In this document: positions 32,869-32,959 of the stretch, in pieces | How positions within the stretch are numbered: position 1 is the stretch's first letter | How the letters are laid out: each line of letters starts with the position of its first letter | Notes under the pieces: generated by a model | The model's database searches: none | Told to the model about the DNA's origin: nothing | Seen by the model: the letters and a program-made list of their open reading frames with translations, nothing else | Origin: a virus | Direction: 5' to 3' (one strand) | Virus record (IMG/VR): IMGVR_UViG_3300010339_000008 | Location: 1 to 34,067 of that record | Length of the DNA: 34,067 nucleotides | Translations under genes and position numbers: made by a program

Positions 32869-32959
32869 TGGCTGGGCGGGAAGGATTCGAACCTTCACTA
32901 AGCGTTCTAAGCGTCTCCGGGTTCAAAGCCCGGCGTGTTCCCGATTCCACTACCGCCCA
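32869..32959 (-). tRNA. tRNA-Gln(UUG)-like with expanded (20-nt) variable region, CCA encoded
   Basis: Acceptor UGGGCGG/CCGCCCA (U1-A72, G73 as in tRNA-Gln); D loop AAUCGGGAA; anticodon stem CCGGG/CCCGG with loop CUUUGAA; variable region AGACGCTTAGAACGCTTAGT containing tandem ACGCTTAG x2; T arm GAAGG-UUCGAAU-CCUUC. Confidence 0.6.

Follow-up and report, generated by a model that had tools for sequence, protein, structure and literature searches.

A phage tRNA-Gln(UUG) gene with a 20-nucleotide, partly duplicated variable region

The DNA considered here is a stretch of 34,067 nucleotides (nt), positions 1 to 34,067 of the IMG/VR virus record IMGVR_UViG_3300010339_000008, referred to throughout as the window. 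Near one end of it, at 32869..32959 on the minus strand, lies a gene for a tRNA-Gln with anticodon UUG, which I call Gln2. Long variable arms are, by the textbook account, reserved for the tRNAs of Leu, Ser, bacterial Tyr, and Sec. An earlier note, made from the sequence alone, had nonetheless described this gene as a tRNA-Gln(UUG) with the hallmarks of its isotype and an abnormally long variable region, and the description is borne out by ARAGORN, by Rfam, and by the sequence itself.

The Gln2 gene and its variable region

ARAGORN calls tRNA-Gln(ttg) at this locus, 91 nt including an encoded CCA (32869..32871, minus strand), preceded by the discriminator G73 (32872, minus). The anticodon UUG (32924..32926, minus) sits in the loop CUUUGAA, with U33, A37, and A38. 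The covariance-model scoring that the earlier note had advised gives a clear answer: Rfam RF00005 matches Gln2 over model positions 1-71 of 71 with 63.4 bits (E = 1.1e-11), well over the gathering score of 29 and within the range of the six other tRNAs of the same array. In that alignment, 17 nt of the variable region are placed as an insertion. Read on the minus strand, the first half of the gene is UGGGCGG-UA-GUG(G)-AAUCGGGA-(A)CAC-G-CCGGG-CUUUGAA-CCCGG, and from the variable region to the 3' end it continues as AGACGCUUAGAACGCUUAGU-GAAGG-UUCGAAU-CCUUC-CCGCCCA-G-CCA. The U1-A72 pair, G73, D loop, and anticodon loop that had been singled out earlier can all be read there.

A cloverleaf drawing agrees with these calls. 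Each of the 20 stem pairs tested is standard in the window copy, and the alignment and drawing together place U8, A14, G18G19, U33, G53, U54U55C56, A58, and C61, with GUUCGAAUC as the T loop. The acceptor and T stems have the standard 7/5 architecture, not 8/4 or 9/3, on which ground an allo-tRNA or a selC-like tRNA was rejected. An archaeal-type intron was rejected as well: Gln2 has the bacterial U1-A72, as against A1-U72 in those Asgard tRNA-Gln genes that carry an insert of about 34 nt. Inspection of the fold made no bulge-helix-bulge motif evident in Gln2, in the absence of a systematic search for one.

The variable region occupies 32897..32916 (minus) and has the 20 nt that the earlier note gave it. 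Its last U is most likely U48, which would pair with A15. The same combination of A15 and U48 is found in Gln1 (the adjacent tRNA gene), in the corresponding tRNA of the related phage contig L168, and in a gene of Plantactinospora taken up below. Most of the region consists of two copies of a 9-nt unit, GACGCUUAG (32907..32915, minus) and, directly abutting it, AACGCUUAG (32898..32906, minus), which are identical at 8 of 9 positions. The claim that ACGCUUAG occurs here twice in tandem is right insofar as there is a duplication, but the two copies of that sequence are not immediately adjacent: one A stands between them, and the tandem has a period of 9. A nonoverlapping direct repeat of at least 8 nt appears in 180 of 2,000,000 composition-preserving shuffles of the 20-mer (9e-5), so chance can be dismissed as its origin. 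Taking away one copy leaves a loop of 11 nt, and the duplication alone is therefore insufficient to account for the whole expansion.

A long variable region need not be an arm. The best hairpin available to the 20-mer (C-G, U-A, U.U, A-U, G-C, with loop AACG) amounts to -0.5 kcal/mol, and 60% of shuffles fold equally well or better. It exists solely because CUUAG is nearly palindromic, and any stem in the region leaves up to 5-6 nt unpaired on the 5' side. By comparison, the median for the 48 arms of Leu, Ser, and Tyr tRNAs in this phage group is -5.6 kcal/mol, just two of them being weaker than -1. The earlier characterization of Gln2 as class-II-like holds for its length (91 nt, with 20 nt in the variable region) and fails for arm structure, the hairpin being no better than those of shuffles. 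Gln2 does not have the 4-5-nt variable loop of class I. With class II it has in common a region of more than 10 nt, but neither a stable stem-loop nor an arm that is conserved among orthologues.

Does the insert destabilize the tRNA? This idea was rejected: the cloverleaf lies 1.4 kcal/mol above the minimum free energy (MFE) structure with the insert in place and 4.0 kcal/mol above it with a hypothetical 5-nt loop. The rival fold stems from complementarity between the D loop and the T arm, so the cloverleaf has no competitor in the insert.

Nor is the duplication an artefact of assembly. A look-up of the window's UvrD protein led to a second assembly, ENA contig ERZ27315278 k141_208421 (L166; 67,430 bp), which over its 20,628-bp match to 13440..34067 of the window departs from it by 2 mismatches, at window positions 32415 and 31165. 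Within this independent and slightly different assembly, positions 3328-3418 hold a 91-nt Gln2 gene identical to that of the window, which excludes the artefact.

Another repeat lies close by. Immediately 3' of Gln2 and upstream of the next gene, the exact 14-nt sequence CCAGTCCTAGTACA occurs twice in direct orientation (32821..32834 and 32846..32859, minus) with 11 nt between the copies. Elsewhere in the window there is one weak match to it (at most 2 mismatches), and among related loci it is found only in the near-identical L166. Scans for promoters and terminators, and a fold of the 3' flank of Gln2, gave nothing above background.

The Gln2 slot in related phages

Gln2 is the last gene in an array of tRNA genes, all on the minus strand and called by ARAGORN and Rfam. 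Four nucleotides upstream of it is Gln1 (32964..33038), a class I tRNA-Gln(UUG) of 75 nt with anticodon loop CUUUGGA. Beyond Gln1 come tRNA-Thr(UGU) (33045-33118), tRNA-Thr(CGU) (33364-33439), a second tRNA-Ile(GAU) (33447-33524; 78 nt, with a variable region of 7-9 nt and, at 42.4 bits, the lowest Rfam score in the array), tRNA-Thr(GGU) (33532-33605), and tRNA-Ile(GAU) (33669-33743). The same array, upstream of a gene for a protein resembling the major vault protein (MVP), is present in the contigs L168 (244 kb), L169, L170/L171, and L183 (454 kb), whose MVP-like proteins are 69-73% identical to that of the window. Its order is conserved: Ile, Thr(CGU), Thr(GGU), Thr(UGU), Gln(UUG), Gln(UUG). 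The tandem of Gln1 and Gln2 closes the Ile/Thr/Gln array throughout this phage sub-clade, the two genes with the same anticodon standing 4-16 nt apart (L168 2949-3117; L169 8134-8291; L170 818-982; L183 9753-9912).

The two members of the tandem are only about 75% identical and therefore are not recent duplicates. To call them paralogues, as the earlier note did, is acceptable loosely, but close kinship is not what the sequences indicate: they belong to two lineages, each conserved in the relatives. The orthologues of Gln1 (L168, L169, L170, L183) begin their acceptor stem with UCCG, are 74-75 nt long, and are class I throughout. With a mean pairwise identity of 83%, Gln1 is the best conserved slot of the array and Gln2, with 71%, the least, the others ranging from 74 to 83%.

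While Gln1 is conserved, the Gln2 slot varies in acceptor stem, discriminator, loop positions 32, 33, 37, and 38, and the length of the variable loop. The window, L168, and L169 share a tRNA whose acceptor begins with UGGGC, with G73 and an encoded CCA in each case. The acceptor is UGGGCGG/CCGCCCA in the window and in L168 and, in L169, the compensated UGGGCAG/CUGCCCA. The variable region has 20 nt in the window, 16 nt in L168 (CUUCCGCAAGGAUAUU, with a hairpin UCC-GCAA-GGA), and 4 nt in L169 (GGGU). In L183 and L170/L171 the slot is filled by another class I tRNA-Gln(UUG), which in L170/L171 is a replacement of the Gln1 type.

Through all of this the fold persists. An alignment of five tRNAs from the Gln2 slot, with 20 stem pairs, has standard pairs in 99% of its cells, and 14 of the 20 pairs have changed on both sides. 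In 500 shuffles such values were never attained, and pairing in slid controls amounts to 37-52%. All five sequences keep U1-A72. To judge from the alignment, compensatory substitutions keep the Gln2 slot as a working cloverleaf while its loop length floats (4, 16, 20 nt).

These observations bear on a possibility raised in the earlier note, that Gln2 is a pseudo-tRNA inactivated by its expansion. On this account Gln1 supplies the function, the redundant Gln2 is adrift and decaying, and the 9-nt duplication is a recent disabling lesion. The redundancy is plain enough, the anticodon of Gln1 being the same and the gene 4 nt away. The Gln2 slot is also the most divergent of the array, with a Gln1-type copy in its place in L170/L171; the insert is unstructured, which is atypical of functional long arms; and the duplication looks recent, given 8 identical positions of 9. 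However, Gln2 has no mismatch in its stems and has lost no invariant nucleotide. Its Rfam score equals those of its neighbors, A15 and U48 are kept at the edge of the insert, and compensatory evolution maintains the slot. In L168, a 16-nt insert is found in a tRNA whose perfect cloverleaf is the MFE structure, and a long loop is thus compatible, in this lineage, with a tRNA that is maintained. An identical Gln2 is present, moreover, in two sampled populations. Decayed copies, which the earlier note would have had one seek in relatives, were looked for in this slot and none was found, its tRNAs being intact; the unduplicated, 11-nt form was not found there either, the loops of the relatives having 4 or 16 nt. 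With the stems and invariant tertiary nucleotides intact, the slot under compensatory evolution, and the relatives intact, a pseudo-tRNA is disfavored and I consider it unlikely.

The syntenic array is absent from the closest IMG/VR relatives (L005-L013) and from the contigs of P0007, P0009, and P0037. An exact pattern running from D loop to anticodon had 0 matches in viral contigs. Another pattern, CTTTGAACCNGGAGACG, had 22 matches, nearly all of them chance or normal tRNAs and none an orthologue, and a pattern of the T arm and 3' acceptor found only tRNA-Asn genes, whose acceptor stem is similar. The D-arm/anticodon pattern of Gln1 brought up generic, single phage tRNA-Gln genes and no Gln-Gln tandem. 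A metagenome scan and a genome scan found no orthologue of Gln2. BLAST of the tRNA and the array revealed no close cultured phage, just partial matches of T arm and acceptor to unrelated tRNAs.

The window is part of a huge metagenomic phage. It encodes a 1222-amino-acid protein that resembles the C-terminal domain of phage tail sheaths weakly and below threshold, as well as NAMPT, the MVP-like protein (which has over 6,600 homologues, many of them from contigs 100-450 kb long), and a UvrD helicase with an insert the size of an intein. This UvrD-type helicase (23440..26286, minus) has 948 amino acids versus 664-670 in L168, L170, and L183. The extra segment of about 280 amino acids (residues ~255-513) matches Intein_splicing weakly and is probably an intein specific to the phage of the window. 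Exact look-ups of neighboring proteins of 60, 457, and 481 amino acids had no match; the 457-amino-acid protein is one single-nucleotide polymorphism apart from a recorded copy.

Several tRNAs of these arrays are odd in ways other than loop length. The tRNA-Ile(GAU) at 33669..33743 of the window has the anticodon loop UCGAUAA, with C in place of the near-universal U33. Several orthologues of Ile(GAU) in the relatives have CCGAUAA or UCGAUAA, and the Gln2 of L183 (9838-9912) also has C33, in the loop CCUUGAA. Noncanonical T loops occur in several Thr tRNAs of the relatives, for example GGGAGAUCAUAGCUCCC or GAGUCUAAUUCUCAC for GGUUCGAAUCC (L169 7877-7951 and 8051-8126; L170 400-475; L183 9502-9577). 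Between Thr(CGU) and Thr(UGU) the window has an open reading frame (ORF) of 60 amino acids (33099..33281, minus), the 3' end of which overlaps tRNA-Thr(UGU) by about 20 nt; its counterpart in L166 is a gene of 59 amino acids, and it has no known domain.

Amino acid identity and decoding

In E. coli, glutamine identity is determined by acceptor pairs 1-72, 2-71, and 3-70, by G73, by the 10-25 pair, and by U35 and G36 (PMC9976931). In the indirect pathway, U1-A72 is in addition a mark for GluRS2 and GatCAB (PMC9976931). Gln2 carries the full set: U1-A72, G2-C71, G3-C70, G73, G10-C25, U35, and G36. None of this involves the variable loop, which in the complex with the class I glutaminyl-tRNA synthetase (GlnRS) faces solvent while the enzyme grips the inner, D-arm side of the L.

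Could the long variable region have made something else of Gln2? SerRS recognizes mainly an extended variable arm, together with G73, and ignores the anticodon (PMC9976931, PMC7609411). One might then imagine that Gln2 has a switched or dual identity, charged by SerRS and reading CAA and CAG in part as Ser, a deliberate mistranslation like that of the nematode nev-tRNAs. Such class II tRNAs with noncognate anticodons do exist (PMC3333845), and Gln2 has G73, G2-C71, and 20 nt in its variable region. The Ser-type pairs taken for comparison were G1-C72, 3-70 of the A-U or U-A type, and C11-G24 as in E. coli, where C11-G24 is a determinant of tRNA-Ser; Gln2 has instead U1-A72 and G3-C70, which are of the Gln type, and U11-A24. 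In this phage group, the arms of tRNA-Ser have energies between -3.2 and -15.6 kcal/mol as against -0.5 for Gln2, in which the stem is weak or absent and 5-6 nt on the 5' side are unpaired. In addition, the same slot holds an orthologue with a 4-nt loop. From a different direction, two base-pair changes in the acceptor turn an amber tRNA-Ser, with its class II scaffold, into a glutamine acceptor, pairs 1-72 and 3-70 being those that discriminate Ser from Gln, as far as the account of that experiment in PMC9976931 (its ref. 82) extends. On that account a long arm is no block to GlnRS, and the acceptor stem of Gln2 falls with Gln. Taken as a set, the identity elements speak for Gln and against Ser: judged by them, continued Gln identity is most likely, charging with Ser is unlikely, and a Gln2 that inserts Ser by design would be a considerable surprise.

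There is work for such a tRNA to do. CAA makes up 37% of the 396 Gln codons in the genes of the window despite G or C at 71% of third codon positions, and so the demand for a tRNA with anticodon UUG is real. The window is tiled by ORFs in the standard code, 18 large ones having 0 in-frame stops, on which basis recoding of a stop codon within the window was rejected. Relatives do have tRNAs with a CUA anticodon, of the amber-suppressor type, a few kb upstream of the array (L168 267-341; L169 3608-3681 and 3704-3779; L171 1784-1860; L183 7049-7125), a hint that TAG is recoded somewhere in the clade; none lies within the 36 kb available from the phage of the window.

I propose that Gln2 is a functional phage tRNA-Gln(UUG), whose solvent-exposed loop bears a lineage-specific, tolerated expansion that derives in part from duplication, and I would put the probability of this at roughly 60%. 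Gln2 is the second member of the Gln1-Gln2 tandem with which the array ends, an arrangement conserved in one huge-phage sub-clade. The final step of the expansion, at the least, would have been a 9-nt tandem duplication of GACGCUUAG, of the slippage type. The tRNA would be transcribed together with Gln1 and processed normally. It would still be charged as a Gln tRNA, either by GlnRS or by a nondiscriminating GluRS together with GatCAB, since the known determinants are present and all lie outside the variable loop, and since the GlnRS of E. coli accepts a class II scaffold. Gln2 would then read CAA (and CAG) alongside Gln1. The expansion itself was most likely neutral or nearly so, an exposed variable loop presumably being tolerant of insertions.

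Some considerations weigh against this proposal. tRNA positions 44-48 normally contact the D arm, and a largely unstructured loop of 20 nt could disturb the tertiary core, the fit to EF-Tu and the ribosome, or the action of modification enzymes. The covariation is evidence that real tRNAs occupy the slot, not that the recent variant found in the window is fit. The slot is the array's most divergent, which fits relaxed constraint on a redundant copy. Finally, with three family members at hand, the inserts of the window and L168, which have no convincing sequence similarity, may be independent or may be one ancestral insert that has drifted fast.

Long variable regions elsewhere and known systems

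How unusual is Gln2? A search anchored on GGCTTTGAACC...GGTTCGAATCC found tRNA-Gln(UUG) genes in viral contigs with normal spacing in 88 cases and long spacing in 4 (4/92). In 185,579 cellular species, there were 19 matches with long spacing, 12 of them Asgard archaeal (with an insert of about 34 nt, an intron-type case and so of another kind) and 6 not tRNAs at all. The one genuine bacterial case is an 87-nt tRNA-Gln(UUG) in a 24-tRNA array of Plantactinospora mayteni. Phage-like arrays from metagenomes add further long tRNA-Gln(UUG) genes (L018, L019, L026, L030, L036), and certain variable regions form hairpins that are clearly nonrandom (L026, -5.1; L030, -5.9; a Thr tRNA of L018, -4.5 kcal/mol). 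The phenomenon extends past glutamine. In 88 viral loci with 744 tRNAs, a sample drawn without selection for a long variable region, 15 of the 614 tRNAs with class I anticodons (2.4%) have a variable region of at least 13 nt. They include Ala, His, Met, Asn, Thr, Lys, Trp, Arg, and Val tRNAs and a recurrent type called as Ile(UAU). Relatives of the window's phage have long Thr(UGU), Lys(UUU), and other tRNAs. Class I tRNAs with long variable regions are thus rare in phage arrays, though they recur there, and cellular genomes have hardly any. Searches of the literature turned up no description of phage tRNAs of class I isotypes with long variable arms.

A specific kinship between Gln2 and the gene of Plantactinospora, or any other long-arm tRNA-Gln, was considered and rejected: their identities of 70-84% are uninformative because the search anchors inflate them. 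The variable region of the Plantactinospora gene has 16 nt (AGACGGUAACGCUCGU) and resembles the start of the window's insert. In its array (L128 3546-7561; NZ_BONX01000058.1), tRNAs with Leu anticodons of 74-76 nt, without a long arm, stand beside the 87-nt tRNA-Gln(UUG), as if the structural classes had been swapped. The Asgard-type genes, from Promethearchaeota/Hermodarchaeota and from subseafloor contigs (L014-L017, L020-L024, L028, L029, L031, L034, L035, L125, L131-L141), are tRNA-Gln(UUG) genes with about 34 nt inserted between anticodon stem and T stem, and ARAGORN does not call them. Many have sequence unlike a tRNA 5' of the D loop, as is the case for intron-containing or split tRNA genes.

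Other long tRNAs deserve mention in their own right. Unrelated IMG/VR contigs (L066 5341; L073 c1034; L094 4928; L087 6269) repeatedly carry a class-II-like tRNA with anticodon UAU, 91-96 nt long, whose copies share the arm motif GCCAGAU(U/G)AGCGG; it recalls the nev-tRNA-Ile(UAU) of nematodes, a tRNA that receives Leu. An unstructured motif in the variable region, AUACUCCAUU, is common to three tRNAs of related huge phages (L008 144-231, called as Leu-UAG; L010 2165-2255; L013 1039-1128), for which the anticodons called by ARAGORN differ. L008 also has, at 19619-19717, a tRNA of 99 nt with a Gln-like acceptor (UGGGGGG/CCCCCCA), G73, CCA, and a variable arm of about 28 nt with a stem of 6-7 bp (CUACGG/CCGUAG). 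ARAGORN calls a four-base anticodon for it, but its loop is readable as CUCUAAA, with anticodon CUA, and the gene may encode an amber suppressor of the Gln type whose long arm is genuine.

The earlier note had also suggested a new function for Gln2, by way of altered synthetase recognition or evasion of an anticodon-loop nuclease. Arm remodeling might be adaptive, a move in the arms race over tRNAs by which Gln2 keeps decoding Gln codons and alters its recognition by a host defense that targets tRNAs, as an escape or as a decoy. There is precedent for the variable arm as a target: PtuAB of Septu/retron-Eco7 cleaves the arm of tRNA-Tyr, and the tRNA-Tyr of phage T5 resists by virtue of a distinct loop (PMC13096335). 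Escape from anticodon nucleases is also a known reason for phage tRNAs to diverge (PMC10264068). In the Gln2 slot, loop positions 32, 33, 37, and 38, the discriminator, and loop length are variable, with the fold kept; two tRNAs of the same anticodon are maintained side by side across the sub-clade; and long variable regions recur in many class I isotypes of phages, several with nonrandom hairpins. But the tRNA in the precedent of PtuAB is class II by nature. Gln2's insert lacks significant structure and is conserved in neither sequence nor length, one close orthologue having a 4-nt loop, and the extra divergence of Gln2 is modest in an array that as a whole diverges fast. I know of no nuclease that targets tRNA-Gln by way of its variable loop. 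Adaptive remodeling of Gln2 seems to me rather unlikely. A bolder version makes expansion of the variable loop a recurrent, selected strategy of phage class I tRNAs that alters recognition by defenses or by synthetases, at its extreme a Gln/Ser dual identity or a decoy, with the 9-nt duplication in Gln2 an instance of its making and the series of 4, 16, and 20 nt a snapshot of how class II arms originate. This too I find doubtful.

In one lineage of Gln tRNAs, loop length floats while the cloverleaf is under selection, and one step of the change is visibly a tandem duplication. The base rate of about 2.4%, with the series of orthologues, suggests that the tRNAs of phages venture into structural territory where those of cells almost never go. 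The natural series of 4, 16, and 20 nt should be informative as to what GlnRS/GatCAB, EF-Tu, and the ribosome tolerate, the origin of class II arms, and the part that arms play in the conflict between phage and host. If the expansion is neutral, there is a lesson for annotation: such genes ought not to be dismissed as pseudogenes or assigned to the wrong isotype by their class.

It remains to set Gln2 beside what is known. With tRNA-Gln of the bacterial type, it shares the UUG anticodon, the Gln determinants, the 7/5 architecture, and a 3-bp D stem with a 13-22 mismatch. It differs in being encoded by a phage, CCA included, and in having 20 nt where 4-5 nt are found; and the tRNA-Gln of E. coli has U38 whereas Gln2 has A38. 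With the class II tRNAs (Leu, Ser, bacterial Tyr, Sec) it has in common a length of 91 nt and more than 10 nt between anticodon and T stems, but not a stable stem-loop, a class II isotype, or a conserved arm, and its acceptor is of the Gln type.

A close parallel for a change of class within an isotype comes from Streptomyces, in which type I and type II tRNA-Leu are both charged by a single LeuRS, as biochemically validated (PMC6614811). There, as in the Gln2 lineage, one isotype is found in both structural classes, and so an arm, be it present or absent, is tolerated by synthetases that have their determinants in other places. The direction is opposite, however: the cellular tRNA-Leu has lost the arm of a class II isotype, whereas the phage tRNA-Gln, known from its sequence, has gained a loop in a class I isotype.

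The combination of a long variable region with an anticodon outside Leu, Ser, and Tyr is one that Gln2 shares with nev-tRNAs, which are class II, bear Gly or Ile anticodons, and are charged with Leu (PMC3333845), and with allo-tRNAs (PMC7609411). These are built on scaffolds of the Leu, Ser, or Sec type, with the corresponding identity elements and well-formed arms, and allo-tRNAs have 8/4 or 9/3 stems. Gln2, with its 7/5 stems, has the scaffold of a Gln tRNA to which an insert has been added. The tRNA-Tyr of phage T5 (PMC13096335) is like Gln2 a phage-encoded tRNA with a nonstandard variable arm, and it demonstrates that an arm can matter in conflict. It belongs to an isotype that is naturally class II and faces a known nuclease, PtuAB, while Gln2 is a class I isotype that has acquired its length.

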